Origin: a virus
IMG/VR virus record: IMGVR_UViG_3300028840_006907
Location: 128,001 to 192,000 of that record
Direction: 5' to 3' (one strand)
Length of the DNA stretch: 64,000 nt
A program made the translations under genes and the position numbers. The notes beneath the pieces are model-generated. The model saw nothing but the letters and a program-made list of their open reading frames with translations, searched no databases and had not been told where the DNA came from. This document shows positions 10,567 to 31,712 of this stretch, piece after piece (position 1 is the stretch's first letter; every line of letters begins with the position of its first letter).

Positions 10567-10612
10567 GTAAATATTCCTCTTAAAATTGTGCCTTGAAAAC
10601 TTGCACCGTTTT

Positions 10613-13297: not shown

Positions 13298-13306
13298 TAA
13301 TTCTCC

Positions 13307-14084: not shown

Positions 14085-14382
14085 CTCTTTTGCTATTCGG
14101 GATTTCTCTACTTTCAGTATGTATCCAACGTATATCTTCAGAATCCCTGTCTTGTGTATAAGGGTAATCAGGTGTACATTTTTCTATAGTCTTTTTTAAC
14201 TTTTTCAGTCTTTCTCTAATTTTTTCTTGCCTCTTTCCGAATTCTGGGTCACATTTTTCCATGTGCTCACTCCAGTGGCCCCGTTTTATTCTTTTATGGC
14301 ATATTTGACAAGTAAAACAACATGCAATAGTGTGTTTGATGCTTTTATTGTCATGGCATTTACAGTGGCATTCTTCAGTCAA
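14014..14382 (-). CDS. zinc-finger protein
   Basis: CHCKCH...CCFTCQICHK...CKICGK. Confidence 0.4.
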   Translation of the reverse strand: MTEECHCKCHDNKSIKHTIACCFTCQICHKRIKRGHWSEHMEKCDPEFGKRQEKIRERLKKLKKTIEKCTPDYPYTQDRDSEDIRWIHTESREIPNSKRDGKVTMECKICGKQWEKKLPYEK

Positions 14383-14401
14383 TTTTATATCTCCCCTTTA
14401 A

Positions 14402-15571
14402 TTATCCAAAATTAGACTTTCGGGTCAGAGGTATCTTTTTTGCAGTATCCGCAAATAGTTTTAACCCTTTCCATGAATCAATGTGGTAGGAAGTAATATA
14501 AGGTGCCTTAGGAGGTGGGCAACCACAATGCCCGTTAACTCTAACTGATCTTTTACCCTCTTTATTGGCATACATCTCCTTAGCATCTTTTAAAGGCATA
14601 TTCCCATCGACCATCCAGTAAGTCCATGCTCTTTCAAAGGTGAAACCCGGGAGTTCTCCAGAGATAGAGAAAGGAACTTCTCCGTCACCTTTTTTAGATA
14701 CAATATCAATACCGGCTAGATCAAGTTCAAGTCTGATGTAATGATCACAAGCTACCTCTCCAGCAAGATTCCCCATTGTATAACTTTCTCCATTATTGGC
14801 TAGATGCGTTTCGCATTTCTTTTTGATTTTTTTCTGATAACATTCTTCGTGGAAATATTTCCATTTTTCATAAAGAACTTCATCATTTTCTTCAATGACA
14901 TAATTTTCATCTATATTTTTTCTGCCATTTTTGTTTTTCTCATAACCATATTCTTTATCAATAGTCAGGTCAATGAGCCCCCTATTGAAAATAGTATGAT
15001 GAAATATATAGACAGTATTTTTGTCTGTGTTTCGAAGCTCTTTTTCAATTTCTGTTAAAGTTTTCCCGACGTATTTGGAGTTTATCTCAAATTGGTTAGA
15101 GTACCGTAATCTTTTGGTTTTATGGCAATACTCTACTTCCCATCCTTTATTACAGTGGGAACATTTTACATAAGCGGGAGGTAAATCATTGCCCATTGAG
15201 AATGAGATACTTATAGGATACGGCCTTTTGTTTTTTGCCCAATCAAAATCTTCTGCATCCATCTCTTCTCGGGTTAATATATTAGGGATATTTTCTTTAC
15301 TCCATCTTTCAATAAAATCCCAAAATTCTGTCTTTGTAAAAACTTTTCCTACAGGAAAATTGAAAATTTTCTCTACCGGAATAAAACCTGTCGCAGTACC
15401 TAAATTACCACACGTATCGAGATAATATCGACCTAAGACATAATATTCGTATAGTCTTTCATCACGTTTGTAACCTGCTTCGTGTCTTTCATTGATCATT
15501 TCCCAAAATGTGTTGTAAGATTTAAGTGACTTTTCGATTCCTTTAATTGTGTTATAGTCTTGTTTTTTCAT
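14402..15571 (-). CDS. hypothetical protein (389 aa)
   Basis: Long uninterrupted ORF in the track. Confidence 0.5.
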   Translation of the reverse strand: MKKQDYNTIKGIEKSLKSYNTFWEMINERHEAGYKRDERLYEYYVLGRYYLDTCGNLGTATGFIPVEKIFNFPVGKVFTKTEFWDFIERWSKENIPNILTREEMDAEDFDWAKNKRPYPISISFSMGNDLPPAYVKCSHCNKGWEVEYCHKTKRLRYSNQFEINSKYVGKTLTEIEKELRNTDKNTVYIFHHTIFNRGLIDLTIDKEYGYEKNKNGRKNIDENYVIEENDEVLYEKWKYFHEECYQKKIKKKCETHLANNGESYTMGNLAGEVACDHYIRLELDLAGIDIVSKKGDGEVPFSISGELPGFTFERAWTYWMVDGNMPLKDAKEMYANKEGKRSVRVNGHCGCPPPKAPYITSYHIDSWKGLKLFADTAKKIPLTRKSNFG

Positions 15572-16599
15572 TTTACCACATGTTTAGAAGTGATTGTTTC
15601 TGCGAATTCTGGCCCCCTATCATAGTCATCAATCCATATGTTATCACAGTGCCGATTTCCTTTTTTCTCACTGCCGTACCATTGTGTCCTCCAATGTGCC
15701 TCAACTCTTATCTTATGATCCAGTTTCCATTTTCCGACACCTCCAGCTTGTTTGATACGAGTTATATCGTTATTCTTATCCTTTATATTTGAACCAACAA
15801 TAATAAATCTTTTGTTGGTAGCTTTTTCTTTCCTTTGTTCCAGTTTTCTTTTCTTGGTTTTATTTTTAATATTTTTTAATCTTGCATCAAAATCTAGTGG
15901 ATCATGGTTTTTTAAATCAGGTTTTTTGCTTGTGATATATAAAAGAGTGTTAAATACAAATTTTGCGAATTCTTCTAAATGATCAACATTTTTATATAAA
16001 TCATATTTATCTACTTCTTCCTTTTTTCTTTTTGTCTCATTTTCAATATAAATCTTTAATTGATCCTGAATTTTTCCAGGTTGCATTTCTATGTGGAAAT
16101 AAAAGGTGGTATCATTAAATGGTATGTCTGGTGTAGGTTTTAATAATGAACATGCCATTACTCTAATATGCTTTTCAGTATTGAAATCTCGAAGATAAAC
16201 GTAAAAACCATTTACAGGATGTTTACTTCCATCTATATCATTTATAGAAAAAAGACCTGGATCTATCTGTATAAAAATTTCTCTAAACGGGGATCTTAAG
16301 AAATAAGCATCAGTATTACAATTTGTTTGGGCTAGTCTTGCTGAAAGTTCTGGTGTTATATAGTATATCTGATCAGCATTATTTTTCATTTGATACATAT
16401 GAAAATATGTATTGTAAAAATGACTTATTCTTGCTGGTGAATCAAATTCAGTAAAAATAGAAGAAGTAGCATTACAAAATTGTTTGAATGTAGGATCAAA
16501 ACCAATATCGAGCATATTTTGTACTAGTATAGTTGGGGCTACTGTCTCTAGATGTTTAATAGCCAGTTCATAATGAGTTTTTGTGAAATACTTCTCCAT
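15568..16599 (-). CDS. hypothetical protein (343 aa)
   Basis: Long uninterrupted ORF; ATGA overlap with downstream gene. Confidence 0.5.
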   Translation of the reverse strand: MEKYFTKTHYELAIKHLETVAPTILVQNMLDIGFDPTFKQFCNATSSIFTEFDSPARISHFYNTYFHMYQMKNNADQIYYITPELSARLAQTNCNTDAYFLRSPFREIFIQIDPGLFSINDIDGSKHPVNGFYVYLRDFNTEKHIRVMACSLLKPTPDIPFNDTTFYFHIEMQPGKIQDQLKIYIENETKRKKEEVDKYDLYKNVDHLEEFAKFVFNTLLYITSKKPDLKNHDPLDFDARLKNIKNKTKKRKLEQRKEKATNKRFIIVGSNIKDKNNDITRIKQAGGVGKWKLDHKIRVEAHWRTQWYGSEKKGNRHCDNIWIDDYDRGPEFAETITSKHVVK

Positions 16600-16763
16600 A
16601 ATAATTATACAAAGTTTATAAGGTGTTTCAATAAGAAAAAAATGATTTAATTTCTATTTAATCGTTTAATCAGCGATTATCTATTAATATAATTACCGTA
16701 TATAGAAAGTAATGTACTATAAAAATAAAGTGAAATACCATAAAAGCAAACAGAAATGATAAA

Positions 16764-17390
16764 ATGATTGAGACACTTTTTTATTTTTGCTATTATTCTT
16801 ATTTACTAGGTGACTTAAAAAGTACTGAGATGTACTATTCTCTATTGAGAAAAGAATTCAAAGAACATGGCCGAAAAGATTCATTAGAATCTCACCAATA
16901 CCGAGAATTGAAAAAAGTTAAAGATGCTCTTGATTCTGGAACCATATCCAAGAAGGAATGGGTAGCTGATAAAGTTATTGTACCCAAGATTAATTCAGAG
17001 ATAAAAATAAAACAAGATGAATTGGTCCGGAAGATCCATATGGAGGGGCTAGAACAGCTTAAAGTTATCTTGGATGATTGTGTGCAGATATATAATATTG
17101 AGCATCCTTGTGGCTCCTACGGGGCTGTAGATATGGTTTATAAAGGATTGAATACGATCTATCCGGTGGAAGTGAAACGAAGTCGGGGAGAACATGATTT
17201 AATTGGACAAATAGGAAAGTATGATTTATATCATCGTTTAAGGCTCCATTACAAACATTATAAACATGTTCAACCGGTAACGATATGTCATTCTTATCAG
17301 AAATTTGCTTTAAATGAGTTAAGACAAATGAGGGTTTTGACCTTAATTTATACCATAATTAATAAGAAAATTACTCTAAATGTAATATAA
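16764..17390 (+). CDS. hypothetical protein
   Basis: ORF track; first + strand gene after the divergent intergenic region 16600-16763. Confidence 0.4.
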   Translation: MIETLFYFCYYSYLLGDLKSTEMYYSLLRKEFKEHGRKDSLESHQYRELKKVKDALDSGTISKKEWVADKVIVPKINSEIKIKQDELVRKIHMEGLEQLKVILDDCVQIYNIEHPCGSYGAVDMVYKGLNTIYPVEVKRSRGEHDLIGQIGKYDLYHRLRLHYKHYKHVQPVTICHSYQKFALNELRQMRVLTLIYTIINKKITLNVI

Positions 17391-17487
17391 ATTACTTTTC
17401 TATTGACTTTAAGATCATTTAGGGGTATATTTAAATTAAATTACCTTTTGTTAGAAAACGATAATTTCTAAAGAGTGTGTCAAAGAA

Positions 17488-17565
17488 ATGCTGAGAATGA
17501 CTTTTAATAGTAACCCAAATCCACAACCAAAGAATTTGCTATTCGTTGGGGTTGTTATGATATAG
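17488..17565 (+). CDS. small peptide ORF (25 aa), copy A of a repeated peptide-plus-hairpin unit
   Basis: Translated by eye: MLRMTFNSNPNPQPKNLLFVGVVMI; similar to the peptide at 18036..18110. Confidence 0.25.
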   Translation: MLRMTFNSNPNPQPKNLLFVGVVMI

Positions 17566-17589
17566 TCATAATCTCTACCTTGGATCAGG

Positions 17590-17629
17590 AAAAGCCCCGG
17601 CAAATGAGAGTTCTCCGGGGCTTTTCTTA
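17590..17629 (+). terminator. terminator-like hairpin with conserved loop AATGAGAGTTC (copy A)
   Basis: Stem AAAAGCCCCGG / CCGGGGCTTTT, 14 nt loop CAAATGAGAGTTCT, then T-rich tail. Confidence 0.45.
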
Positions 17630-17646
17630 TTTAATAATGTACTAAT

Positions 17647-17979
17647 ATGAAATTCGGTTCTATCACAGGTTTTTATAAGGGAAGGATAGAACTTATGAAT
17701 AAAGTATCTTGGGATGAGTATAATAGTATGGTAAATTCAGCAATTGATAGTGGGTATCCTTATGCTAGTGGTATTTTAATAGCTGAATTAGAATCCATAG
17801 CTAAGAATCTAACTCATCAAAATAAAAAGATAGAGGAAACATTAGTAAAAGAAGATAAGGATAAATTGGAAATTAGATTGGAATCAGTAAAGTCATGGAA
17901 TAAAGATACTATTGAGGGTATCGAAAGAGCTATTAAAAAAGCTGATGAAGCAGTAAAAAAATTAAGTGTTGACATTTAA
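17647..17979 (+). CDS. hypothetical protein
   Basis: ORF track. Confidence 0.4.
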   Translation: MKFGSITGFYKGRIELMNKVSWDEYNSMVNSAIDSGYPYASGILIAELESIAKNLTHQNKKIEETLVKEDKDKLEIRLESVKSWNKDTIEGIERAIKKADEAVKKLSVDI

Positions 17980-18035
17980 TACAATTTGTGGTATCTTTAA
18001 ATTTACATAGTTTTTATTATAAGGAAAGTTTTAAA

Positions 18036-18110
18036 ATGTTGTTTACAAAAATACTCAATAATAACCCGCAACCTAATCAACCAACGAATATTTATTTGTC
18101 GGGGGCCTGA
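18036..18110 (+). CDS. small peptide ORF (24 aa), copy B of the repeated unit
   Basis: Translated by eye: MLFTKILNNNPQPNQPTNIYLSGA; AAGGAAAG upstream. Confidence 0.25.
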   Translation: MLFTKILNNNPQPNQPTNIYLSGA

Positions 18111-18140
18111 GTATTGTCCAAAAGTTAAACTGAAATCACA

Positions 18141-18175
18141 ACCCCCGGCGAATGAGAGTTCACCGGGGGTTTTTA
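18141..18175 (+). terminator. terminator-like hairpin with conserved loop AATGAGAGTTC (copy B)
   Basis: Stem ACCCCCGG / CCGGGGGT, loop CGAATGAGAGTTCA, then TTTTT. Confidence 0.45.
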
Positions 18176-18179
18176 TTTT

Positions 18180-18255
18180 TGGGATGTCGCCTAACGGTAT
18201 GGCACCTGACTCTGGCTCAGGAATAATCAGGGTTCAAGTCCTTGCATCCCAGCCA
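18180..18255 (+). tRNA. tRNA-Gln (anticodon CTG)
   Basis: Acceptor TGGGATG/CATCCCA with U1-A72 (typical of bacterial tRNA-Gln), anticodon stem CCTGA/TCAGG with loop CTCTGGC, T-loop TTCAAGT, encoded GCCA. Confidence 0.75.
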
Positions 18256-18279
18256 ATTAACTTTAGGAAACAACAATAA

Positions 18280-18353
18280 CGGGGTGTGGCCTAGTCTGGT
18301 AAGGCGTCTGCTTCGGGAGTAGAAAATCGGAGGTTCAAATCCTCTCATCCCGA
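18280..18353 (+). tRNA. tRNA-Pro (anticodon CGG)
   Basis: Acceptor CGGGGTG/CATCCCG with C1-G72, D-stem GCCT/AGGC, anticodon stem TCTGC/GTAGA with loop TTCGGGA, T-loop TTCAAAT. Confidence 0.75.
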
Positions 18354-18371
18354 TTAATAAAGGTAAAAATT

Positions 18372-18926
18372 ATGAGACCCATGATATATCCTAAAAAGAA
18401 TAGGAAAATAAAAAGACCACGAAGATCGAGACCATTAAAAAGATGTGTTCATATTGATGGAAAAGAATGGAGGTGGGAAACAACAGGTCACTGGGATAGT
18501 GATGCAGGTAGTTATGGTTGTTTAACTGATCAGAGCGTTAAAATACTTTCTCCTGATAATAAATTTTTTTCTATACGTGCTCATGAAGTAATGAAATGTG
18601 AACCGATAAGATGGGAATGTTGTGTTGGTGAAAAATTAATAACAGTTTTACCGGGGAAAGTAAAACAGTATATAATAGATAATTTAATTGATCATGATAT
18701 TTCAAGATCGTTAAGGAGACGCATTCATATAGATGGTAGAGAATGGGGTTGGCAGTTTAGTAAAGGAAATCCTGCATATCAGCTCTGTGGAGTATCTGTC
18801 CGTTCTCCTGATAATCGGTATTTATGGATTTATGCAAAAGAGTTAGGATACGAGATTAAACCATCAGTAATTAAAAAGTATATAATTGATAATTTATTAT
18901 ATCGGGGTATAGCGCAGCCTGGTTAG
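18372..18926 (+). CDS. hypothetical protein with internal tandem duplication
   Basis: Two repeated halves (HIDGKEWRWETTGHW...SPDNKFFSIRAHEV / HIDGREWGWQFSKGN...SPDNRYLWIYAKEL; KQYIIDNLIDH / KKYIIDNLLYR); 3' end overlaps tRNA-Pro(GGG). Confidence 0.4.
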   Translation: MRPMIYPKKNRKIKRPRRSRPLKRCVHIDGKEWRWETTGHWDSDAGSYGCLTDQSVKILSPDNKFFSIRAHEVMKCEPIRWECCVGEKLITVLPGKVKQYIIDNLIDHDISRSLRRRIHIDGREWGWQFSKGNPAYQLCGVSVRSPDNRYLWIYAKELGYEIKPSVIKKYIIDNLLYRGIAQPG

Positions 18927-18980
18927 CGCGTCTGAATGGGGTTCAGAAGGTCGCCAGTTCAACTCTGGCTACCCCGACCA
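18903..18980 (+). tRNA. tRNA-Pro (anticodon GGG)
   Basis: Acceptor CGGGGTA/TACCCCG, D-stem GCGC/GCGC, anticodon stem TCTGA/TCAGA with loop ATGGGGT, T-arm GCCAG-TTCAACT-CTGGC, encoded ACCA. Confidence 0.8.
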
Positions 18981-19008
18981 AAGTTCTTTGAAAATTATGG
19001 GGGTGTGG

Positions 19009-19274
19009 CAGAAGGGATATGCAGTCCTCAAAAAGTAGACAGGTCTGGGTAAAACCGGGTCATTACAGGAAGTTTGTATTCGCTACTGAAACGAAACAAA
19101 GGGAAGGTAGTGTAACGCTTACGGACTGGTGCTTGCAAGGGTTTACGGAAGACACTGACACGTTGCCTGGGATCTGGAGACAGCCCAGGAGGGTTTGTAA
19201 ATAACGGCAGGAAGTCCTTTTTCCCAATAGTGAGCTTTGGATGACTTATGCCGGTTCGAATCCGGTCACCTCCA
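19009..19274 (+). ncRNA. tRNA-Ala-like element with about 190 nt insertion (interrupted tRNA or other tRNA-like RNA; identity unresolved)
   Basis: 3' end is a canonical T-arm GCCGG-TTCGAAT-CCGGT followed by CACCTCC-A; the only complementary 5' strand is GGGGGTG at 19009, giving a 7 bp acceptor helix with a G3-U70 wobble (the tRNA-Ala/tmRNA identity pair); no group I motifs and no tag-like ORF inside. Confidence 0.3.
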
Positions 19275-19360
19275 TCAAAATAAATTAAATAGATAGATAG
19301 GCAAACTGGCAAGCCATTTGGTTGTAATAGAAAATGTGTAGCAAGATCATAAAGACATAC

Positions 19361-19632
19361 TGGAGTGTAGCTCAGTGGCAGAGCGGGTGGCTGTCTTGGT
19401 TGGCAGCTCTTATAGGAAACTGTAAGATGAAAACTCGGTGAATTCAGGGAAACCTAAGTCTTAAACAGATATGGCAATCCTGAGCGAAGCCTTGAGAAAG
19501 GAACGTGCAGAGACTTATAGCGCCGAGCACCTAAGGTGAAAACTATGGTGATGAGATAGTCCAGGCCCTTGGGAAATCAGGGGAATTACTGTAACCACTT
19601 GGTCGGGGGTTCAAATCCCTCCACTCCAGCCA
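19361..19632 (+). tRNA. tRNA-Asn (anticodon GTT), interrupted by a group I intron in the anticodon loop
   Basis: Exons join to TGGAGTG-TA-GCTC-AGTGGCA-GAGC-G-GGTGG-CTGTTAA-CCACT-TGGTC-GGGGG-TTCAAAT-CCCTC-CACTCCA-G-CCA; U1-A72 and loop CUGUUAA match E. coli tRNA-Asn. Confidence 0.7.
19395..19591 (+). ncRNA. group I self-splicing intron (in tRNA-Asn anticodon loop, between positions 35 and 36)
   Basis: Contains group I core motifs TCAGGGAAACC, GGCAATCCTGAGC, GTGCAGAGACT (R-like) and GAGATAGTCC (S-like); 5' exon ends in U paired to G in putative guide GCAGC (P1 GCTGT/GCAGC); intron ends in G. Confidence 0.65.
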
Positions 19633-19683
19633 ATTTTAAAGGGTCCTAGAGGAATTTACTTTAAAGAAAAGGAGAAAAATTAA

Positions 19684-19884
19684 ATGAGTAAAGATGAGAA
19701 ACCTGATTATTCGAAAGATTTCGATACATGTCCTTGGTGTAATAAAATACCAAAAGTATCGAAACATTTCAGATATGATGAATGGCAACTGATCCATCGT
19801 TGTGATAAATTACTTACTGTAATTAGTATGGATTGGACTGAATTAGATAGTCTTAAAAATCGATGGAATCGACCTAAGAAATGA
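19684..19884 (+). CDS. hypothetical small protein
   Basis: ORF track; AAGGAGAAAAA upstream; CPWCNK in translation. Confidence 0.4.
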   Translation: MSKDEKPDYSKDFDTCPWCNKIPKVSKHFRYDEWQLIHRCDKLLTVISMDWTELDSLKNRWNRPKK

Positions 19885-20156
19885 CAGAATGTACTATATG
19901 TGAAAGAGAAACTCCTGAGAAATATGTGGAGAAACATCACTTGACTCCTTGTAGCCGAGGAGGAAAGGATAAGGAGAAAACACTTACTTGTATTGATTGC
20001 GGAGATCAGGTACATCGATTATTTACGAATAAAGAATTGGAGAGAGACTATTATACACTCGAAAAATTATTAGCTCATCCTAAAATCCAGAAATGGAAGA
20101 AATGGGTTAAGAATAAGAGATTCGGGATATGTATGAAACGAAAAAAGAAGAGATAA
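19881..20156 (+). CDS. zinc-binding small protein
   Basis: ORF track; CTICERE...CIDCGDQVH; ATGA overlap with upstream gene. Confidence 0.4.
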   Translation: MTECTICERETPEKYVEKHHLTPCSRGGKDKEKTLTCIDCGDQVHRLFTNKELERDYYTLEKLLAHPKIQKWKKWVKNKRFGICMKRKKKR

Positions 20157-20163
20157 TATATAA

Positions 20164-20239
20164 CGGGCGGTCGCCTAATCTGGTATGGCACCACATTTGG
20201 GATGTGGAATAACTGGAAGTTCAAATCTTCTCCGCCCGA
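20164..20239 (+). tRNA. tRNA-Pro (anticodon TGG)
   Basis: Acceptor CGGGCGG/CCGCCCG with C1-G72, anticodon stem CCACA/TGTGG with loop TTTGGGA, T-arm GGAAG-TTCAAAT-CTTCT, A73; variable region slightly long. Confidence 0.65.
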
Positions 20240-20263
20240 TATATTTTTAAATCAATAAGTTAC

Positions 20264-20339
20264 TGGGATGTAGTTCAGTTGAAAGAACACCGGAATTTGG
20301 ATCCGGGGGTCGCAGGTTTGAGCCCTGCCATCCCAGCCA
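20264..20339 (+). tRNA. tRNA-Gln (anticodon TTG)
   Basis: Acceptor TGGGATG/CATCCCA with U1-A72, D-stem GTTC/GAAC, anticodon stem CCGGA/TCCGG with loop ATTTGGA, T-arm GCAGG-TTTGAGC-CCTGC, encoded GCCA. Confidence 0.8.
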
Positions 20340-20537
20340 TTTAATTTTTTTATCAATATATTTACCACAAAGACGTATATTATTTATACAACTTAAAAAT
20401 AGGAATAATATATGACATAGATAAAAATACCACCCTAGATCCTCAAAATATTCAAACCTCCTTAAAACACGGTTATTATACCAAATGGTGTTATACCAAA
20501 CAGTACAATATTCATTCATTTAAACAGGAGAATAACC

Positions 20538-20837
20538 GTGATCAAAAATAGAAAATTTTTAAAATTTGAATTAAAATTAGAAGCTCAAAAATTACGAAAA
20601 ATCAAGACTGATATTAAAACCAAGCAGAGAGCTGGCCAGTATGCCGGTCATGAACAGTCCGAATTATTGACTCTTAAATGGAATTACCGCCATCGATTTA
20701 TTGCTTATTGTATGATGCGGGGTAGAGAATATAAGCAAATCGAAAGAACATGTAGAGTTGAACCAAATCATGACTGGGTAAAGGAGATCATCAATGAATA
20801 CTCCCCGCAAAAAGAAACTATACGTGCTTCTGCGTAA
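20538..20837 (+). CDS. hypothetical protein
   Basis: ORF track; AGGAGAA upstream; GTG start. Confidence 0.35.
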   Translation: MIKNRKFLKFELKLEAQKLRKIKTDIKTKQRAGQYAGHEQSELLTLKWNYRHRFIAYCMMRGREYKQIERTCRVEPNHDWVKEIINEYSPQKETIRASA

Positions 20838-21108
20838 AGATTTGGATGAAACTTATCGATGTGTTCAAGGAGGCCATGCTATTGCTGAGTATTCTCTAAA
20901 GGATTACCAGTCATTTAAAGAATGGGCAAATGGAACTCTGATTTATCTTGGAGTACCTGATTTAAAAGCTTTGGAATTATGGTTGCTCAAATTGGAACGG
21001 AAAAATATTTTTCATATCAGGTTTCATGAACCCGATCTTGGGAATGAGTTAACATCGGTAGCTTGTATAAATACAGGGAAAATTTTTAAAAGTCTTCCTC
21101 TTGCTTAA
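20794..21108 (+). CDS. PTH2-family peptidyl-tRNA hydrolase-like protein
   Basis: LYVLLRKDL...QGGHAIAEY...IYLGVPDLKAL...TGKI lines up with the PTH2 pattern (VLVVRxDL...QxxHA...kvvlKv....L......G......DAG.T.i..G..T.lgiGP). Confidence 0.5.
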   Translation: MNTPRKKKLYVLLRKDLDETYRCVQGGHAIAEYSLKDYQSFKEWANGTLIYLGVPDLKALELWLLKLERKNIFHIRFHEPDLGNELTSVACINTGKIFKSLPLA

Positions 21109-21115
21109 AGTTACA

Positions 21116-21189
21116 GCGCCTGAGGCTCTGAGGTGAGCAACTTGGACTCTAAATCCAAGTTTTTCAGGGTTCGACTCCCTACAGGCGCA
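21116..21189 (+). tRNA. putative amber suppressor tRNA (anticodon CTA)
   Basis: Acceptor GCGCCTG/CAGGCGC, A73, D-stem GCTC/GAGC, anticodon arm ACTTGGA-CTCTAAA-TCCAAGT (loop has U33, CUA, A37), T-loop TTCGACT; non-canonical 7 bp anticodon stem or 3 nt D/anticodon linker and short D-loop. Confidence 0.5.
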
Positions 21190-21287
21190 TTATAACTATA
21201 ATCTTTCCAACATTTTAAATTTTTAGTTATCACAATCATCTCTCAATCTTGTATAATATATAAGGGAAAAATTTAAGGAGATATAAA

Positions 21288-22022
21288 GTGATAATAATTT
21301 CTAAATTCCATGATTATTACGATAGTGGAATGACATATGGTATTGATAAAGAATTGAGGTTTATAAGAAAAACTGAAAAAATAGATAAACAATTGGAGAT
21401 ACCTGAAAAGATTACTGAATTAATGAAAGATTTGCCTAAGGTTTATGATTATTATAGAAGTCAACAATTTACAGCTCAACCTTTTATAATAATTTTCTGT
21501 GGTCAGGTTCATCTGGGGTATCATTTTTTTAATTTGAAAGATCCTAAGGATAAGAACTATTATGTGCGTCATACAGATCCAGATATCTATACATATGATT
21601 TGCCTTCAGTAGAAAAAGTGATTCAGAAATACGAACCGGAGATGTTCAAAACGTTTCGTAATAAAGATACACTCTTTCACCGTATCCTACCTTCATTCAA
21701 ATATGACGTTCTGGAAAGAGCATTCAAAAAATTCGAAGACAAGAAAATGGATGTCGGGATTCATCTGGATGAAGAATCCCCGATCCTATATCTTGGATAT
21801 GATGACAGAGATTTTATTTACATAAAGAATCCTGTTCTTCGGAAACTTCAATTTTTTAAAAAGGTTAATTCATTTACAGCTTTCCAGAATATCTCAATGT
21901 TTATAGGAGGAATTTGTAGCAAGACTTTCCCTCCCACCGTGGAACTCAGTGAAAAAGACAGAATCGGAAAACAAGGATTTGACAAGTGGTCTTTCAGAAA
22001 GAAGGGGGAAAATTCAAAATGA
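21288..22022 (+). CDS. hypothetical protein (244 aa)
   Basis: ORF track; AAGGAGA upstream of GTG. Confidence 0.45.
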   Translation: MIIISKFHDYYDSGMTYGIDKELRFIRKTEKIDKQLEIPEKITELMKDLPKVYDYYRSQQFTAQPFIIIFCGQVHLGYHFFNLKDPKDKNYYVRHTDPDIYTYDLPSVEKVIQKYEPEMFKTFRNKDTLFHRILPSFKYDVLERAFKKFEDKKMDVGIHLDEESPILYLGYDDRDFIYIKNPVLRKLQFFKKVNSFTAFQNISMFIGGICSKTFPPTVELSEKDRIGKQGFDKWSFRKKGENSK

Positions 22023-22192
22023 ATTTATTAGTAGCAGTAACAGGAGGATTCAATTTGTTTCATTGAAAATGCTATGGAACATTGTAGTGTAGAAGATCGT
22101 AAGAATGTTTATTATAATAATGCAGATAAAATATTGGATGGGGTTTATTTAGATAGATAAAGAAGAGTTTTAAATACATATATTTGAAATTG

Positions 22193-22240
22193 AAATACCC
22201 ATATTCGAAATTCATGAATCTTGAATATGGGTATTTTAAT
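22193..22240 (+). terminator. terminator-like long hairpin
   Basis: AAATACCCATATTC ... GAATATGGGTATTT perfect 14 bp stem around a palindromic loop, followed by TTTAATTATTT. Confidence 0.45.
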
Positions 22241-22290
22241 TATTTATTGATATTTCCATTAATTATAAACCTTAACTAGGAAGATGTATT

Positions 22291-22563
22291 ATGGCCGATA
22301 AAAAAACCGAAAAGAAGAAGTTTAATTGTGAGGTATTATTAGCACTTGATGAGAAGATAGGCCGAGGCAATATAGTCAGGTTACAAGTAGTGCGTTGGAA
22401 TAATTATTCCCCGGTTCTGGAAAAACGGGAGTATTACCAGAAGGATGATGAAGAAAGAACTGGGAAAGCCAAAGGTTTTAATCATGAAGATTTTGAAATG
22501 ATCCTAGAAAATGCAGATAAAATTCAGAAACTCCTTGAAAAGGAGTTTAAAGATAAAAAATAA
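22291..22563 (+). CDS. hypothetical protein
   Basis: ORF track; AGGAAG upstream. Confidence 0.4.
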   Translation: MADKKTEKKKFNCEVLLALDEKIGRGNIVRLQVVRWNNYSPVLEKREYYQKDDEERTGKAKGFNHEDFEMILENADKIQKLLEKEFKDKK

Positions 22564-22580
22564 AATAAAGGTTAGTTTAT

Positions 22581-22763
22581 ATGAGTATCGAGATTGTCGT
22601 AGCTGAATTAACACAAGGACTCAAAACTTTTCAATCAATCCATGGAGTTGATGACGAAGCAATGGTTGATGTTCTTACAGAGTGTGCCGAAATGTATAAA
22701 CGTAAAAAATTAGCAAAGGAAATGATGAAAAATAAAGATATAGTGACTGAACCTATTACTTAG
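22581..22763 (+). CDS. hypothetical small protein
   Basis: ORF track; convergent with the following minus-strand block. Confidence 0.35.
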   Translation: MSIEIVVAELTQGLKTFQSIHGVDDEAMVDVLTECAEMYKRKKLAKEMMKNKDIVTEPIT

Positions 22764-23454
22764 ATTTCTTTTCTTTATATTTGCTAAAGAGACCCATAAA
22801 AAGCGTCCAGAGTAATTTCAAGGCGTTATTCCTGACGTATTTTATTATTAATTCAATACCTTTCTTTTCGATATATAATTCAAATTCCTTTTCAAAAGTT
22901 TCTGTTCTATCCTTTATTGATTTTTTCCATACTTCAACCATTTCATTCAGATTGGTTTTACGTTCTTCAATCTCTTCTCGAATAGAATCTATTACCTCTT
23001 CTTTTTTATTACCTATTTCACTCAACAGGTCACTTAAATTTTTATCAATATCATTTTTGACATTCTTTAAAGCATCCTCTAGGAAACCTTGACCTTCATC
23101 CAATATCTTTCTGAGATTGTTATAGACTTCTCCCAATTCCCCTGTCTTGGTATCAGTTTTTCCCAAGAATTCCTTAACATTCTGGAGCTTTTCATCCATA
23201 TTACCAAGGTTGAGCTTTTCCATTGATTTTCTAATTTTTTCTGCTTTATCTTCTTGAATAGCCATATATTCTGCTAAATAATCTACTATTTTGTTTATTT
23301 TAAGTTTTGATTCAGAAAAATCAGGTTTTAGTTTTTCAACTTCCTCTTGTAATTCTTCTAAAAACATTTCACGGATTTTCTGAAGGGCTCCTTCCATTGC
23401 CCCACCGTTTGATGAGACACTGTTAAGTAGGTTCTTAAATTTCTTTTTATTCAT
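22756..23454 (-). CDS. coiled-coil protein
   Basis: E/K-rich heptad-like sequence throughout (LEELQEEVEKLK..., EIEERKTNLNEMVE). Confidence 0.45.
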   Translation of the reverse strand: MNKKKFKNLLNSVSSNGGAMEGALQKIREMFLEELQEEVEKLKPDFSESKLKINKIVDYLAEYMAIQEDKAEKIRKSMEKLNLGNMDEKLQNVKEFLGKTDTKTGELGEVYNNLRKILDEGQGFLEDALKNVKNDIDKNLSDLLSEIGNKKEEVIDSIREEIEERKTNLNEMVEVWKKSIKDRTETFEKEFELYIEKKGIELIIKYVRNNALKLLWTLFMGLFSKYKEKKSK

Positions 23455-23726
23455 GATTTCCTTTCTATTATTGTTATTTTTCTTACTTTGAGTTTCGGTC
23501 CTGGTACAACTTTGGCTGGTATTGGTATTTGTTCATGATACCATTCTATAAATCTTTCATCGTTTATATCAAAAATAAGCCCATCAGAGATAACAATATC
23601 AGGTTTATTTGATTTACTATCTGAAGTACCAATATGGACAGGATGGGTATATTCTTTTTCTGATGTTTGAACTTTTTCAGTTACCCAATAATATCCGTTT
23701 TTTTCAGGAGCTTTCTTTGTCCACAT
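23451..23726 (-). CDS. hypothetical protein
   Basis: ORF track; ATGA overlap. Confidence 0.4.
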   Translation of the reverse strand: MWTKKAPEKNGYYWVTEKVQTSEKEYTHPVHIGTSDSKSNKPDIVISDGLIFDINDERFIEWYHEQIPIPAKVVPGPKLKVRKITIIERKS

Positions 23727-24029
23727 TTATAATATTTCTTTCACTTTGTTTTTTAATGTATCACATTTAGGATCAAATTCTGGCTCTTTTCCATCGTTCC
23801 ATGGTGACTTAATCCAGAAAAAGCATGAGTCAACACGACCCACTCTGATGTCTCCATTCATGTAATCCCTTTGTCCTTTAAAATAAGCCCTCTCAATGGC
23901 TTTAAAGTCGGTAGTGGCCTCTATACTAATGTATTGTATTTTATTGCTCTCAGGGGCAAATAACCGCCATGAGATAAGGAATAGTAAGTAAGCTCCTATT
24001 AAAATTATAAAACTATTAATTTTAAACAT
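23727..24029 (-). CDS. hypothetical membrane-anchored protein
   Basis: N-terminal hydrophobic segment FIILIGAYLLFLISW; stop TAA directly abuts downstream ATG. Confidence 0.4.
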   Translation of the reverse strand: MFKINSFIILIGAYLLFLISWRLFAPESNKIQYISIEATTDFKAIERAYFKGQRDYMNGDIRVGRVDSCFFWIKSPWNDGKEPEFDPKCDTLKNKVKEIL

Positions 24030-24897
24030 ATAAATTGTTCTCTTGTATAATACCAGCTATTAATGTGAGAAAAGGAGACTCCCTAAGATACTTTTCCCGA
24101 TCCTCCTTTAATTCTTTTCTGATATCTGTAGAGGATATCTTTGGTATTTTATTACCAGCATCAAAAAACTTATGTGGTTCTTTCATATACCAATTCACAT
24201 TTGGATCGCGCTTTTCTCCTTGTCTAGATACTACAATGAATGGTATCAATTTTTCAAGGTGTTCATAGTTAACCCATTTATCAAATGTATTGGCATTATC
24301 AAGTCCAATGACATAATTGAATCGGTATTCGTTTTTGGCAAAATCCTCTTCCATAAATTTATTAAGGAAATAATATGTCTCTCCAGCTAGTTCGTGAACA
24401 ATTTCATAATCGCATACTTTCATTCTCTTATCTACCTGTACATATTCTCGACACATGGCTAGCCGTAGTGATGCAGGAGCCATTTCTTTTCCATATAAAT
24501 GTCTGTAGCAGGGGATGTACCAAACTTCATCGAATAACCCTGCTTCATCGAGTAAGAATTTTCCTATAGCAAGATGGCCAGGATGGATGGGATCAAAAGC
24601 ACCCCCGATGAGCGCAACTGATACTTTCCTGCCAAGTTTACGGTATAAAGATCGGCTATTAATTTTGGTGATGTTCATTTCAACCAATTCATTAAAATCA
24701 TAACCGGCTTCATTAATCCATTGTATCAGTGTACCAAGTAGATCGCTCGTTTCATCTTTTAATCCCGTCATGGTCCTGGCTCTTGTCAATTCAAATGCTT
24801 CTTTAAGGATATCATTCAATCTGATATCAGTAGGAGTATTTCCAAAAGCTTCTGAATACGTTTTATTGATATTATTTAATAAATCTGATAAATTCAT
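24022..24897 (-). CDS. nadD: nicotinate/nicotinamide mononucleotide adenylyltransferase (NadD/NMNAT-like) with N-terminal extension
   Basis: GGAFDPIHPGHL (HxGH nucleotidyltransferase motif) and ISSTDIR near the C-terminus; about 100 aa N-terminal helical extension of unknown function. Confidence 0.6.
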   Translation of the reverse strand: MNLSDLLNNINKTYSEAFGNTPTDIRLNDILKEAFELTRARTMTGLKDETSDLLGTLIQWINEAGYDFNELVEMNITKINSRSLYRKLGRKVSVALIGGAFDPIHPGHLAIGKFLLDEAGLFDEVWYIPCYRHLYGKEMAPASLRLAMCREYVQVDKRMKVCDYEIVHELAGETYYFLNKFMEEDFAKNEYRFNYVIGLDNANTFDKWVNYEHLEKLIPFIVVSRQGEKRDPNVNWYMKEPHKFFDAGNKIPKISSTDIRKELKEDREKYLRESPFLTLIAGIIQENNLYV

Positions 24898-25078
24898 TTT
24901 TCAATTTCTTTTTAGGTAAATTTTTTATTATACAATCAATACAAATATCTTTACTTTTCCACTGCCCATTTTCTATAGTTCTTAATACCACCCTATAACT
25001 TTTATCTCTAATAAAGAGCCTGCTATCGTCAATATCCATTTGTTTTTTGCATATATCACATATTGTAATTTTAGCCAT
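24872..25078 (-). CDS. small zinc-ribbon protein
   Basis: CDICKK...CIDCIIK. Confidence 0.35.
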   Translation of the reverse strand: MAKITICDICKKQMDIDDSRLFIRDKSYRVVLRTIENGQWKSKDICIDCIIKNLPKKKLKNEFIRFIK

Positions 25079-25095
25079 TTTGTTTTAAATTACAT

Positions 25096-25887
25096 TTATA
25101 TATCTAAATGGCAAATACGAGGCATTTCCATTTTATGAGCATTCTTTTCATGTCGTTCTAGATATAATTCAAGAACTTTCATTTTTCTTTTTTCTATTGT
25201 TAACATAGATTTCATCGCTTCAAGTCCTTTGATAGTTTTTAAACCACCTAATTTTTTACAAAAATCCATAGCCCATTCCAATTCAGAATATGTAGCTCCA
25301 ATCTGATCTTCATCAGTTCTGCCATCTTCCCATAATCCATCAGTAGGTTTTGCTGTTAAAATATCTGAGTTCACTCCAAGATAGGCTCCCATACCATATA
25401 CCTCAGATTTGACTAGCTCTCCTATTGGACTTATATCAACACCACCATCACCGAATTTTGTAAAGAAACCAATTCCGAAATCTTCAACCATATTCCCAGT
25501 ACCAACAACATAATAATTATGGGTATTTGCGATAGCATAAAGAGCTACCATTCGAAGACGGGATCTGGTATTAACCATGGCAAATTCATTGTAATAATTA
25601 CTATGATTAAAATTATTAAAGACAACTGAAAGATCTTCCGTATGACTGGTAACATTGGTATAGTCTTTTTTTAATTTTTCAACATGTGCTTCTGCTCTGG
25701 GAAGAATATCTTGATTTATTGGCATATGGGCACATATAACAGGTTTATAAGTTCTGGCACATAAATTTGATACAACTGCTGAGTCAATTCCACCTGAAAC
25801 TCCAACTACACAGCCATCTACATGGGATTCCTTCATGTCTCTAATAATCCAATTTACAATATGATCTGAGACTTTTTTATAGTCCAA
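25096..25887 (-). CDS. nadE: NH3-dependent NAD+ synthetase
   Basis: PP-loop GVSGGIDS near N-terminus; length 263 aa typical of NadE. Confidence 0.65.
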   Translation of the reverse strand: MDYKKVSDHIVNWIIRDMKESHVDGCVVGVSGGIDSAVVSNLCARTYKPVICAHMPINQDILPRAEAHVEKLKKDYTNVTSHTEDLSVVFNNFNHSNYYNEFAMVNTRSRLRMVALYAIANTHNYYVVGTGNMVEDFGIGFFTKFGDGGVDISPIGELVKSEVYGMGAYLGVNSDILTAKPTDGLWEDGRTDEDQIGATYSELEWAMDFCKKLGGLKTIKGLEAMKSMLTIEKRKMKVLELYLERHEKNAHKMEMPRICHLDI

Positions 25888-25899
25888 ATTTATCCTCCT

Positions 25900-27624
25900 T
25901 TAATTCATGGCAATTGAGTATATTTTTTTATTGTCAACAAATAACACTTTCATATGTTCATGGTATAATCGCATAGATACATTAATCGGTGTATTCGTAA
26001 TATCCTTACTTCCTTTATTATTTTTAAATAGAGACATTTTATCATTATCGACAGAGATGCACATTCCAGTAGGTAATGTAATAAAATTAACTGGATGGTA
26101 ATCAATCATATCTTCCTGTTTAATATCATAGCTAGTATGGGTTTTATCAAAACAAATTGTATATTTAAAATAACTTCCCTGTTTTTCTGTGACCACTATA
26201 CAGATTCCTTTATCATACCGGGCATCAATGATTCTTTGGCCGTCCAATTCTTTTACATAAGTATTAATACATTTCCCTCTTTCGAAAGGAATAGCTAATC
26301 GTATCTTTGTGAAATCATCCTGTACAATAACACCTCGGAAAGACTTATATGATTTGCTTATTCTACATACAGTTTTAGTCGTATGAATAACTCTCTGGAA
26401 TTTTTCAAAATGATTCTCTATCAATCTTCCATTATTAATGGTGTAAATATACCCATTATACCCCATTATGTCTTCAGCTTTGATGTCGGATATTGATTTA
26501 TTATTTAAATCAAAGAACTCAGCTTTTAAATTCTTGAAATAAACTATTAAGGGATCCGCTCCATAAGCTTCACACATGCCTACTATGGTTGATTTTAAAG
26601 GTTTATGGAACTTAACCACTTTATCTTTATTCTGGTCATATATGGCTTTAGAAGTTATCACAAAGCGTTTATCATTAAAGAAGAAGATATTCCGAATCGG
26701 TTCATTTACTTCGAATACTTTTTCTACTATGAAATCACCTCTACTAGTTATAGTTCTGGCAACTGCTGCTACAACCACGACCTCGTCCGGTAATGGCGGG
26801 ATGGATCTCTCATTATTTTTAAATTCTGATACATACCATTCAAAATGTTTTTTAGGGATCACAGAATAATCTTGGCACATGGCCGGTAATGGCTTTGCTC
26901 CTTTATCAAAATTTGAGACTCCATCATCCATCCTTTTAATCCATTGTTTCGGTTTATAATCGATATGTCTACTTTTGTAAGGGTGAATACCCAGATACAT
27001 TTGATAAGTTACGACACCCCAGGAGAACCAGTCAGAGTACTCAGTAAATTGAGCATTCTTAACCTGTCGATCTCGAACACTATCCATAAGAGCATCTGCT
27101 GGGAAGCTTTTTGTTTTCCAGGCATCCACATCAATGTGATAAACGGTCTTTAAATCACCGCTAAGAAGGAAATTCATCTCATTATAATCAACTACTAGGA
27201 AGCCATTTTTATGGATGTATTGTAGGGCTTTCTGCATTTTAAGAACTAGGTCAGCTATATCTGTTGGACTTAAATGTTTATTGTCTCTGAAAGTCTTAGT
27301 AAATACTTGGCAGAGAAATTCAACTCCATCAACATATCTCATTGTAAACCCAATGGGTGTGTGGTTCCTCACTTCATATAAAGGTTCTATGGGTGACAGG
27401 ATATCATCTCGTTTTAATTCGGTCAATTCGTGTATTTTTGCTTCTGGTATCATATTTTTAGTATCATGATAAATTTTATATGCAATCCCATTTAGATAAA
27501 AAACTGTTCCAAAACCACCAGAAGCTTTATAATTATCATCAGTCAAAGTAACAATTTCTTTTGTTGTCTGAACTTTGAATGACTTCTTTATTATCGGGTT
27601 CATTTTTGTTTTCGGTAAAATCAT
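25900..27624 (-). CDS. Ser/Thr protein kinase-like protein with large C-terminal domain
   Basis: Gly-rich loop GGFGTVF, lysine in IAYKIY, catalytic-loop-like HKNGFLVVDYNEMNFLL, DVDAW, SDWFSWGVVTY; about 330 aa C-terminal region unassigned. Confidence 0.55.
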   Translation of the reverse strand: MILPKTKMNPIIKKSFKVQTTKEIVTLTDDNYKASGGFGTVFYLNGIAYKIYHDTKNMIPEAKIHELTELKRDDILSPIEPLYEVRNHTPIGFTMRYVDGVEFLCQVFTKTFRDNKHLSPTDIADLVLKMQKALQYIHKNGFLVVDYNEMNFLLSGDLKTVYHIDVDAWKTKSFPADALMDSVRDRQVKNAQFTEYSDWFSWGVVTYQMYLGIHPYKSRHIDYKPKQWIKRMDDGVSNFDKGAKPLPAMCQDYSVIPKKHFEWYVSEFKNNERSIPPLPDEVVVVAAVARTITSRGDFIVEKVFEVNEPIRNIFFFNDKRFVITSKAIYDQNKDKVVKFHKPLKSTIVGMCEAYGADPLIVYFKNLKAEFFDLNNKSISDIKAEDIMGYNGYIYTINNGRLIENHFEKFQRVIHTTKTVCRISKSYKSFRGVIVQDDFTKIRLAIPFERGKCINTYVKELDGQRIIDARYDKGICIVVTEKQGSYFKYTICFDKTHTSYDIKQEDMIDYHPVNFITLPTGMCISVDNDKMSLFKNNKGSKDITNTPINVSMRLYHEHMKVLFVDNKKIYSIAMN

Positions 27625-28487
27625 TAATATTCCTCATTTAAATAAATAGTAGCAGTACCAACGTCATCATAATGATGCCAATTATGTTTTTTAACTTTCT
27701 TACCAAAAAAGATCATGCGCTTTTTTACAAATTCACCGGTAGTGTTTTTAAATCCAATAAATTCGGGTATTGTAATATCTAATCCTATATCTTTTTTATA
27801 ACTATCTCTGTAGGTTGATATACCATCTGTACATATTGTAACAGATAAGAGTTTATCCTTCATAATATTGGAAATTTCTTCGGAATAGATTGTATCAAAA
27901 GGTAATGAAGATTCAAGAGGATTTTCTAGCCCCTTTTCTCCTGACAAAGTAATAATTTCCCGAAAGCATTGAGGATTATCTTCACCTTTAATAGCACAAT
28001 TTTTTAAATAGACTGTTCTATCACTTATTAGATAAAATGGGGCATTTAAGGAATAATCTATTTTCATTATTAGCTGATAATTACCGCCATCTTCTTTTCT
28101 ATAATTAGCTGTAATGACACCATCACCCCATGCAAATACCAATACTCTTGAAGACAATCTTATAGTTATTAATAATGTGGCTTCCAAAGCCTTAGGAGTA
28201 ATGGGGTATATCTTTCTTATTTCATCAGCTCTTTTGTGAATGCCGTTTCCGAGATAAAATGAGAGTTCTTTCAGATTTAATCGTTCGAATAATCCAGTTT
28301 GGATACAAAATTCAATATTATATTTAGCAACATGACATAATATTTGAGCACCTACTTCAGAATGATCCGCAGAAGAACATCCATCTGCAACGATGCCATA
28401 CTCAATTCCTTTAAAAGAGCCACTTAATGCATAGTCTTGACAGACTAAATGAGTGCTTCCTTTTTCATAATATGAGTCACAGCTCAC
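27624..28487 (-). CDS. PP2C-family protein phosphatase-like protein
   Basis: YGIVADGCSS, VFAWGDGVI, TICTDGIST, DDVGTATIYL resemble PP2C metal-binding motifs; GTG start behind AAAGGAGG. Confidence 0.5.
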   Translation of the reverse strand: MSCDSYYEKGSTHLVCQDYALSGSFKGIEYGIVADGCSSADHSEVGAQILCHVAKYNIEFCIQTGLFERLNLKELSFYLGNGIHKRADEIRKIYPITPKALEATLLITIRLSSRVLVFAWGDGVITANYRKEDGGNYQLIMKIDYSLNAPFYLISDRTVYLKNCAIKGEDNPQCFREIITLSGEKGLENPLESSLPFDTIYSEEISNIMKDKLLSVTICTDGISTYRDSYKKDIGLDITIPEFIGFKNTTGEFVKKRMIFFGKKVKKHNWHHYDDVGTATIYLNEEY

Positions 28488-28546
28488 AATTACCTCCTTT
28501 TAGTAAGCACAGAAGGCTCCATTACAGAGCCTTCCTGCAAAAATTC

Positions 28547-29314: not shown

Positions 29315-29326
29315 AAGTTATCCTTT

Positions 29327-30154: not shown

Positions 30155-30201
30155 ATCTTATCCTCCTTTAAGATTTAGTATATGTTATCTGTTATTTATA
30201 A

Positions 30202-30444: not shown

Positions 30445-30451
30445 AATATAT

Positions 30452-31624: not shown

Positions 31625-31712
31625 ATATACCCTCCTTTTATTTTATCTATTTCCGTTCTTTTATTTCTAAAATCCTTTTTTTATATTCTTATAATGGAAA
31701 GGAACTATCATA

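Follow-up and report, generated by a model that had tools for sequence, protein, structure and literature searches.

The 64,000-nucleotide stretch of viral DNA analysed here (the window; positions 128,001 to 192,000 of IMG/VR record IMGVR_UViG_3300028840_006907) carries three consecutive small genes on its plus strand. The first (20538..20837) codes for a helical protein and the second (20794..21108) for a protein resembling the peptidyl-tRNA hydrolase Pth2, hereafter the PTH2-like protein. The third is a transfer RNA (tRNA) gene with a CUA anticodon, tRNA(CUA), at 21116..21189. The source is a jumbo phage. Searches of INPHARED with the region and with tRNA(CUA) returned no match at the nucleotide level, and a 21-mer of tRNA(CUA) was likewise absent from IMG/VR. 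Near-identical assemblies of the phage exist, with contigs of up to 469,617 bp. The window is reversed relative to the JGI contig Ga0180437_10000019 (3300017963), so that position x of the window falls at about 312443-x of that record, and the tRNA(CUA) sequence is identical in this contig and in a Logan assembly.

The tRNA(CUA) gene and its protein neighbours

The tRNA(CUA) gene is real. ARAGORN, run on the window, calls a 74-nt tRNA at 21116..21189 (+) with the anticodon cta, located at 21149..21151; the label tRNA-Pyl attached to the call is the default name that the program gives to any cta anticodon. The sequence, GCGCCTGAGGCTCTGAGGTGAGCAACTTGGACTCTAAATCCAAGTTTTTCAGGGTTCGACTCCCTACAGGCGCA, scores 38.1 bits against the Rfam tRNA model RF00005 (gathering score 29, E = 6e-7) in a scan of the local region, and was missed by a scan of the whole window at the gathering threshold with default filters. 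The minimum free energy cloverleaf has an energy of -32.5 kcal/mol (z = -3.74), and none of 200 shuffled sequences folded equally well. An earlier note, made from the sequence alone, had proposed a candidate amber suppressor tRNA here and suggested ARAGORN as a check; the ARAGORN call, the Rfam score and the fold bear the proposal out, and the anticodon loop is intact as the note had described it (CUCUAAA, with U33, the CUA anticodon and A37).

The acceptor stem is a perfect 7-bp helix with G1-C72, followed by the discriminator A73. The T loop (TTCGACT) is canonical, and G18 and G19 are present in the D loop. Both tRNA-Gln genes of the phage have U1-A72 and G73, unlike tRNA(CUA). This difference, to which the note had pointed in describing the gene as no obvious Gln derivative, rules out a Gln-type body. 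The note was also right in calling the fold non-canonical. The gene departs from canonical tRNA geometry, in which the anticodon stem has 5 bp, position 26 is a single nucleotide and U8 pairs with A14. Two nucleotides are inserted after position 26, between the D and anticodon stems; by pairing with the first bases of the variable region, they can extend the anticodon helix to 6-8 bp. The D loop has 6 nt, and the T stem contains a C49.A65 mismatch. The usual U8-A14 tertiary pair is swapped to A8/U14, as it also is in L103, an independent, distant relative. The 3' CCA, which is encoded by 19 of the 26 tRNAs of the surrounding array, is not encoded.

The 104-aa product of the PTH2-like gene is, as judged from its predicted structure and from profile comparisons, a divergent protein of the Pth2 fold. 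The AlphaFold2 model has a predicted local distance difference test (pLDDT) score of 88.7. Searched against the PDB with Foldseek, it gave 14 significant matches with template modelling scores of 0.67-0.79, 13 of them Pth2/Bit1 chains and the remaining one Atu0240 (2gax). A profile of the family matches six Pth2-family sequences in the PDB, the best being 24bt (E = 5e-6) and 2zv3 (E = 5.5e-5) and the others 1rzw/3erj, 1rlk, 1q7s and 1xty. The match of the protein to Pfam PTH2 (PF01981) is below threshold (12.6 versus 23 bits). Four of six family members match this Pfam family at E values up to 10 (best E, 0.006), and the protein matches phrog_3668, annotated as "hydrolase", with E = 5e-8. Single-sequence searches of Pfam and of the PDB gave nothing meaningful, and only profiles and the predicted structure reveal the kinship. 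The identity that the earlier note gave to this neighbour is thus upheld by fold and profile search and not by the Pfam threshold. The note had mentioned the gene as incidental context; it is the most informative part of the finding.

Residues Q25, H28, F77, E79, P80, D81 and T87 are invariant in the PTH2-like family. The fold, the profile homology and the motif RxDL...Q..HA are shared with Pth2 proteins (PF01981), such as MJ0051 (2zv3), AF2095 (3erj) and human Bit1 (1q7s). In contrast to these, the family falls below the Pfam threshold and has no GKGK loop: the GK insertion is missing, and an almost invariant Tyr21 aligns with the loop Lys. The family has an invariant F.EPD...T motif of its own, in which E79-P80-D81 lies near the DAG position of Pth2. 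In the Sulfolobus solfataricus enzyme, we take the loop Lys K18 and D86 of the DAG motif to be the catalytic residues.

An exhaustive profile search recovered 506 cluster representatives of the family (50% identity) at E<=1e-10, most of which are single-domain proteins of ~100 aa. The domain may also be part of a longer protein. For instance, in Stenotrophomonas phage RAS14 (OP752703; L040 3449..4300) it is C-terminal, within an annotated coding sequence at 3515..4300 (786 nt, ~260 aa); in this locus no suppressor tRNA was found within 4 kb, and an annotated valyl-tRNA synthetase gene lies ~1 kb downstream.

The helical protein gene codes for 99 aa, and its 3' end overlaps the PTH2-like start by 44 nt. 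The AlphaFold2 model (pLDDT 84.6) consists of a helical hairpin plus two short helices, and the sequence features the motifs LKxELK...YRHxxIAYCxxRG..Y.QIE...PN.... In a fold search no match reached significance; those ranked highest (E>1) were coiled-coil hairpins of a generic kind, the seryl-tRNA synthetase arm among them. Searches of Pfam and PHROG gave no match. The PTH2-like gene and tRNA(CUA) are separated by 7 nt. No promoter-like or terminator-like site was found between them, and from this arrangement the two appear to be co-transcribed. A promoter-like site upstream of the three-gene unit (20451..20479, +) is a weak match to the consensus (9/12), and promoter-like sites are no more numerous than in shuffled sequence.

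Linkage of PTH2-like genes to stop-codon-reading tRNAs

A PTH2-like/suppressor-tRNA module is defined here as a PTH2-like gene and a stop-codon-reading tRNA that share a strand and lie a few kb apart at most, the tRNA usually being downstream. IMG/VR was scanned with the PTH2-like family alignment, which yielded 392 relatives, and the best 80 loci were taken; the linkage set comprises 88 loci in all, Lak megaphage loci among them, and these fall into 54 clusters when grouped at 80% identity. In 50 of the 54 clusters, a tRNA that reads a stop codon is encoded on the same strand at a distance of at most 3 kb; its anticodon is mostly CUA and in some cases UCA or UUA. In 48 clusters a tRNA with one of these three anticodons is called in the locus by ARAGORN. 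Two tRNA(CUA) genes spotted by eye, in L033 (~1996..2067) and in L116 (~3304..3380), complete the count. Both were missed by ARAGORN and by Rfam; their acceptor, anticodon and T arms are good, and their D arms are degenerate. These two came to light only through their position behind a PTH2-like gene, and the PTH2-like family could serve as a marker for further suppressor tRNAs overlooked by predictors.

All suppressor tRNAs called by ARAGORN in PTH2-like loci are on the gene's own strand, and they are mostly the first tRNA downstream. In 16 of the 54 cluster representatives, no more than 20 nt separate the protein match from the start of the tRNA. For relatives that share 44-57% identity with the PTH2-like protein, a tRNA(CUA) gene follows immediately downstream in every case; the contigs for P0009 and P0011 stop short of the tRNA position. 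The helical protein, a ~100-aa protein with a YRHxHIAY motif, has a homologue immediately upstream in 32 of the 54 dereplicated loci, with 11 more distant members in addition, which makes it the third frequent member of the unit. In INPHARED the PTH2-like family is confined to Lak megaphages (15 records), two Stenotrophomonas jumbo phages and two huge phages that are uncultured. Stenotrophomonas phages RAS14 and CM1, together with LR756504, are candidates for genomes that have the protein and lack a suppressor tRNA. Spacing and order may differ: in Lak phages a tRNA(UUA) gene precedes the PTH2-like gene by ~600-700 nt, and in LR756500 a tRNA(CUA) gene lies ~800 nt downstream of it.

Twenty-seven large-phage loci anchored on an unrelated downstream gene (phrog_4243) were used as controls. 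Suppressors account for 47 of the 214 tRNAs in representative PTH2-like loci and for one of the 48 tRNAs in the controls. The single control suppressor is in L025, a locus that also encodes a PTH2-like protein, 6.9 kb off. The difference between PTH2-like loci and controls has a Fisher p value of 6e-16, calculated on loci that share ancestry. Other neighbouring tRNAs and genes vary freely, and the best other neighbour, helical protein aside, is found in 8 of the 54 loci. The linkage persists while the linked tRNA changes both its anticodon (CUA, UCA or UUA) and its sequence.

The PTH2-like loci contain 57 unique suppressor tRNAs, which are very diverse. All seven acceptor pairs are kept in 56 of them, A37-A38 is found in 50, the stop anticodon is retained and most have G1-C72 together with A73. 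Conservation of acceptor pairing, stop anticodon and A37/A38 despite this diversity points to purifying selection on a working stop-codon reader. C33 replaces the near-universal U33 in ten of the 57 (L047, L065, L081, L086, L097, L104, L108, L112, L114 and L121).

Linkage was also examined from the side of the tRNA, in 73 IMG/VR tRNA(CUA) loci chosen by DNA pattern. A PTH2-like gene is within reach in 20 of these, always on the same strand. Dependence is therefore asymmetric: the protein is nearly always accompanied by a suppressor tRNA, and suppressor tRNAs often occur without the protein. Because of this asymmetry, the PTH2-like protein looks like an accessory factor of suppression. In a relative (L030), an RtcB RNA ligase gene, apparently intein-interrupted as judged from its translation, is found at 8070..9539, ~1.7 kb downstream of the PTH2-like/tRNA(CUA) pair.

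TAG usage in this phage and in its relatives

The use of TAG was analysed in the window and in a 10-kb flank on each side, 84 kb in all of a phage contig of 388,651 bp. Greedy tiling of open reading frames (ORFs) under code 11 yields 105 genes covering 89.8% of the window, and coverage is 89.1% when TAG is treated as sense. The comparison of genetic codes proposed in the earlier note thus gives a coding density no higher with TAG as sense (0.891 versus 0.898), and the reassignment of TAG that the note had considered is not supported in the 84 kb. The flanks on both sides also tile under the standard code. The 105 window genes end in TAA (70), TGA (21) or TAG (14). The eight TAG-terminated ORFs listed in the note are all among the last group; the six others are 4790..5323 (+) and five ORFs on the minus strand. 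Two of the listed ORFs, 6868..7443 and 18372..18926 (+), run into the 5' portions of tRNA-Arg (7434) and tRNA-Pro (18903), respectively, their TAG stops falling inside the tRNAs.

Only two in-frame ORF pairs of substance are joined by TAG in the window, and neither was accepted as a read-through fusion. ORFs 283..624 and 637..945 are tandem paralogues, each of which has its own ribosome binding site and ATG. ORF 4155..4319, downstream of 3558..4142, codes for a separate small membrane protein with its own start and ribosome binding site. No excess of backup stops was found near TAG ends (p = 0.65), and no in-frame TAG was found in the 84 kb. Given the tiling, the proportion of TAG stops, the separate nature of the paired ORFs and the lack of a backup-stop excess, TAG is an ordinary minority stop in this region. 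No structural genes were recognised in the 84 kb. In published recoded phages, in-frame TAG codons are concentrated in structural and other signature genes (PMC10607447).

Relatives that carry the PTH2-like/tRNA unit differ in this respect. The PTH2-like gene itself contains in-frame TAG in L042, L061, L062, L065, L076, L090 and L117/118. Among the best 80 of the 392 relatives from IMG/VR, L042 is the one closest to the PTH2-like gene (56% identity). Long ORFs with 1-11 in-frame TAG codons are found in L086, L104 and L107, as well as in L037 and L038 (Lak-A1 and Lak-B5). In the Lak loci, coding density rises from 0.50-0.61 under code 11 to 0.88 once TAG is read as sense; in general, coding density in 6-kb loci is too noisy to class most relatives as recoded or not. 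Judging from these reading frames, several relatives are clearly TAG-recoded, and the in-frame TAG codons in L042 and in other PTH2-like genes indicate that recoding is common in this neighbourhood of phage diversity.

A possible role in stop-codon suppression

In the reading that we favour, to which we give about an even chance, tRNA(CUA) is a functional UAG-reading tRNA within an accessory module conserved among large and jumbo phages, and the PTH2-like protein is an accessory factor of suppression. The tRNA, encoded last in the order helical protein, PTH2-like protein, tRNA(CUA) on one strand, would be charged by a host synthetase. In Escherichia coli, A73 together with U35 favours Lys or Gln identity, and the same residues in tRNA(CUA) suggest charging with one of these two amino acids; its anticodon arm matches that of the phage's tRNA-Lys(UUU) but for an added G-C pair. 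Once charged, the tRNA would compete with release factor 1 (RF1) at UAG. The PTH2-like protein would act on the ester-linked 3' end of tRNA put at risk by suppression. It may hydrolyse peptidyl-tRNA, or N-blocked aminoacyl-tRNA, dropped off ribosomes that pause at stops, or it may set the acylation state of the suppressor tRNA; in either case the scarce suppressor and the tRNAs of last sense codons would stay usable. In this phage, the purpose could be to decode in-frame TAG codons located outside the 84 kb or to allow partial read-through of UAG in host and phage genes.

A more far-reaching reading, which we put forward only tentatively and consider less likely to be right than wrong, is that the helical protein, the PTH2-like protein and the tRNA form a dedicated device for reprogramming termination. 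The enzyme would be specific for its partner tRNA and would gate the time or strength of read-through, by hydrolysing or gating the aminoacyl or peptidyl ester of this tRNA, possibly guided by the helical protein. If true, the device would add to genetic-code switching a layer of protein control that has not been described before. It would also account for the TAA-reading tRNA present in all Lak phages and for the orphan suppressors that occur in jumbo phages with the standard code.

Several observations weigh against a functional suppressor assisted by the PTH2-like protein. tRNA(CUA) has the lowest Rfam score of the window tRNAs (38 versus 46-63 bits for the others). Because it is the least canonical of them, with a 2-nt insertion and the C49.A65 mismatch, its decoding efficiency is uncertain. 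A nearest-neighbour comparison with 308 phage tRNAs gave no clear isotype; within the phage, the T arm and 3' acceptor strand are weakly closest to tRNA-Arg(CCU), and the anticodon arm corresponds to that of tRNA-Lys(UUU) plus one G-C pair, with a weak overall match. The replacement of the Pth2 loop Lys by Tyr means that hydrolase activity of the PTH2-like protein is not assured. Shared ancestry among the loci inflates the association statistics. The 84 kb contain neither in-frame TAG nor a surplus of backup stops. Lastly, in L086, L104, L107, L037 and L038 the linked tRNA reads UGA (anticodon UCA) or UAA (UUA) and not TAG. A simple role in supporting recoding fails in these loci, as the codon that is apparently recoded is TAG. 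Crisci et al. reported a TAA-reading suppressor in 51 of 51 high-quality Lak genomes, the role of which was unexplained, TAA recoding not being evident (PMC8346664).

Some of the same observations would be expected if the phage used the standard code throughout and tRNA(CUA) were a standalone suppressor, an alternative also named in the note and one that we rate as possible, though clearly behind the reading we favour. The tRNA would then decode no sense positions of the phage; UAG read-through would perturb host translation or counter a host defence, and the PTH2-like protein would clean up the peptidyl-tRNA that stalls or drops off as a result. TAG being only a terminator in the 84 kb agrees with this, as do the Lak genomes (PMC8346664); the UUA anticodon of their unexplained suppressor is that of the tRNA adjoining the PTH2-like gene in two Lak loci. 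A precedent is also provided by jumbo phage XacN1, which has two tRNA(CUA) genes and a standard code, and for which no read-through targets were found (PMC5852040). On the other hand, in-frame TAG occurs inside the PTH2-like gene of L042, at 56% identity, and of several others, and the late genes presumably lie in the ~300 kb of the contig beyond the 84 kb covered.

XacN1 and Atu_ph07 are among the closest known parallels. The setting is similar, a jumbo phage of ~385 kb with many tRNAs in which TAG serves as an ordinary stop; XacN1 carries the two tRNA-CUA genes and Atu_ph07 a tRNA-UCA gene (PMC5852040, PMC6102473). These are orphan suppressors of standard-code phages with, as here in the 84 kb, no identifiable read-through target. 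They differ in the position of the hydrolase: in XacN1 a peptidyl-tRNA hydrolase, ORF295, is listed apart from the tRNA genes, which are in the terminal repeats, whereas the gap in our phage is 7 nt. A tblastn search of the XacN1 and Atu_ph07 genomes with the PTH2-like family gave no match.

TAG-recoded phages (code 15: Lak, crAss-like and other gut phages) resemble the present phage in having a tRNA(CUA) gene in the tRNA array of a very large phage, and relatives with the same gene-tRNA unit have in-frame TAG, of which there is none in the 84 kb. In the code-15 system TAG is reassigned to Gln, and tRNA(CUA) is not Gln-like in its G1-C72 and A73. No linked peptidyl-tRNA hydrolase is mentioned in the papers on recoded phages that were consulted (PMC8346664, PMC10607447, PMC10879173, PMC11210395, PMC13037316).

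The PTH2-like protein might instead act as a brake, deacylating the suppressor or hydrolysing its peptidyl form; suppression would then be delayed to a given point in the infection, and the protein would be a timing switch for a change of code. We consider this unlikely. It would account for the almost full dependence of the protein on a nearby suppressor tRNA, which is not reciprocated, and for a linkage that holds whichever stop codon the tRNA reads; the altered active-site loop, where Tyr replaces the loop Lys of Pth2, would fit a changed substrate. However, the apparent co-transcription across the 7-nt gap would produce brake and tRNA together, and to our knowledge there is no precedent for deacylase activity on aminoacyl-tRNA in the Pth2 fold.

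Adjacency could also be inherited synteny without functional coupling, the PTH2-like protein being a general enzyme of ribosome rescue or tRNA recycling that happens to reside in a tRNA array. Iyer et al. noted PTH2 across jumbo phages, of the PTH2 and not of the Pth1 type (as here, when compared by description), and proposed that it rescues ribosomes after tRNA cleavage; the word "suppressor" is absent from that paper (PMC7824862). All loci are tRNA-rich, and the relatives share ancestry. Synteny of this kind is nonetheless improbable in view of what has been conserved. Other neighbours are not (8 of 54 loci at best), and the linked tRNA is varied, yet it remains a stop-codon reader in 50 of 54 clusters. 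Moreover, suppressors make up 47 of 214 tRNAs in PTH2-like loci, and the only one among 48 in the controls occurs with a PTH2-like protein.

We regard as just as improbable that tRNA(CUA) is a decaying, non-functional copy. The low Rfam score, the failure of the whole-window scan, the 2-nt insertion, the short D loop, A8, the C49.A65 mismatch and the missing CCA could all be taken as signs of decay. They stand against a perfect acceptor stem, a canonical T loop, G18 and G19, an intact anticodon loop, and the fact that A8 is matched by U14. In addition, the sequence is identical in independent assemblies, and odd D arms are common among conserved relatives (e.g., L033 and L116).

Genuine pyrrolysine tRNAs typically have neither G18G19 nor T-psi-C, have a 1-nt acceptor/D linker and a 3-nt variable loop, and occur in genomes with pylS and pylBCD. 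The tRNA-Pyl label can be dismissed almost with certainty: the CUA anticodon, extendable anticodon helix and small D loop would suit it, but G18 and G19, the TTCGA T loop, the 2-nt acceptor/D linker and the variable region of 5-6 nt are all wrong, and no PylS-like family appears in the Pfam listings, which cover 1..31108 and 50698..64000 of the window and the flanks, most of 31109..50697 being unscanned.

Suppressor tRNAs are known in both recoded and standard-code jumbo phages (PMC5852040, PMC6102473, PMC8346664, PMC10607447, PMC13037316). We found no published link between a suppressor tRNA and PTH2 in a literature search that was sparse in subscription journals, so that an earlier description is possible. 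The finding is a known element, the phage suppressor tRNA, within a conserved protein-tRNA module for which no description was found. Stop-codon recoding in phages is accepted to work through suppressor tRNAs. The PTH2-like family, ~100 aa long with a predicted fold of tRNA-ester hydrolases, hardly ever occurs unless a suppressor tRNA is nearby; it thereby offers a concrete handle on the timing of suppression, on its efficiency relative to release factors and on its use by phages that are not recoded, and may be of interest to engineers of orthogonal suppression systems.

The tRNA array and other genes

tRNA(CUA) is the last member of a same-strand tRNA array, which spans 117..21189 (+) in the window. 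The array contains at least 27 tRNAs, comprising 13 called by ARAGORN in the window, 13 in the upstream 10 kb and a split tRNA-Asn(GUU) gene at 19361..19635 (+). A group I intron of 197 nt (19395..19591; Rfam RF00028, 92.8 bits) interrupts the anticodon loop of the latter. The unspliced tRNA-Asn gene was missed by ARAGORN and Rfam alike; its exons (19361..19394 and 19592..19635), when joined in silico, give a clean ARAGORN tRNA-Asn. A candidate gene for a small, divergent transfer-messenger RNA (tmRNA) is located at 18999..19277 (+). It features a tRNA-Ala-like acceptor stem (GGGGGUG/CACCUCC) with G3:U70 and a T arm. The Rfam tmRNA model aligns to it over its full length with a score of only 11.2 bits (E = 0.029), and it is not called by ARAGORN. 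tmRNAs called by ARAGORN are found near the PTH2-like gene in L059 and L112. HNH endonuclease genes, for instance 19881..20156, are scattered through the array.

Replication and recombination genes in the 84 kb code for a RecA/UvsX-like recombinase, an SbcCD-like nuclease, a sliding clamp, a DNA ligase and a RecD2-like helicase. NAD salvage enzymes, a Ser/Thr kinase, a PP2C phosphatase, a flotillin-like protein, DnaJ and HNH endonucleases are also annotated. Genes related to host physiology are grouped on the minus strand at 24022..31624 and encode a CTP_transf_like nucleotidyltransferase, NAD synthase, a 574-aa protein kinase followed by the PP2C phosphatase, and NAPRTase. The flotillin/SPFH protein (621 aa) is encoded at 36344..38209 (-). 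A gene at 15568..16599 (-) codes for a 343-aa product with a precomputed Pfam match to PF26125, an AcrVA2-like anti-CRISPR family.

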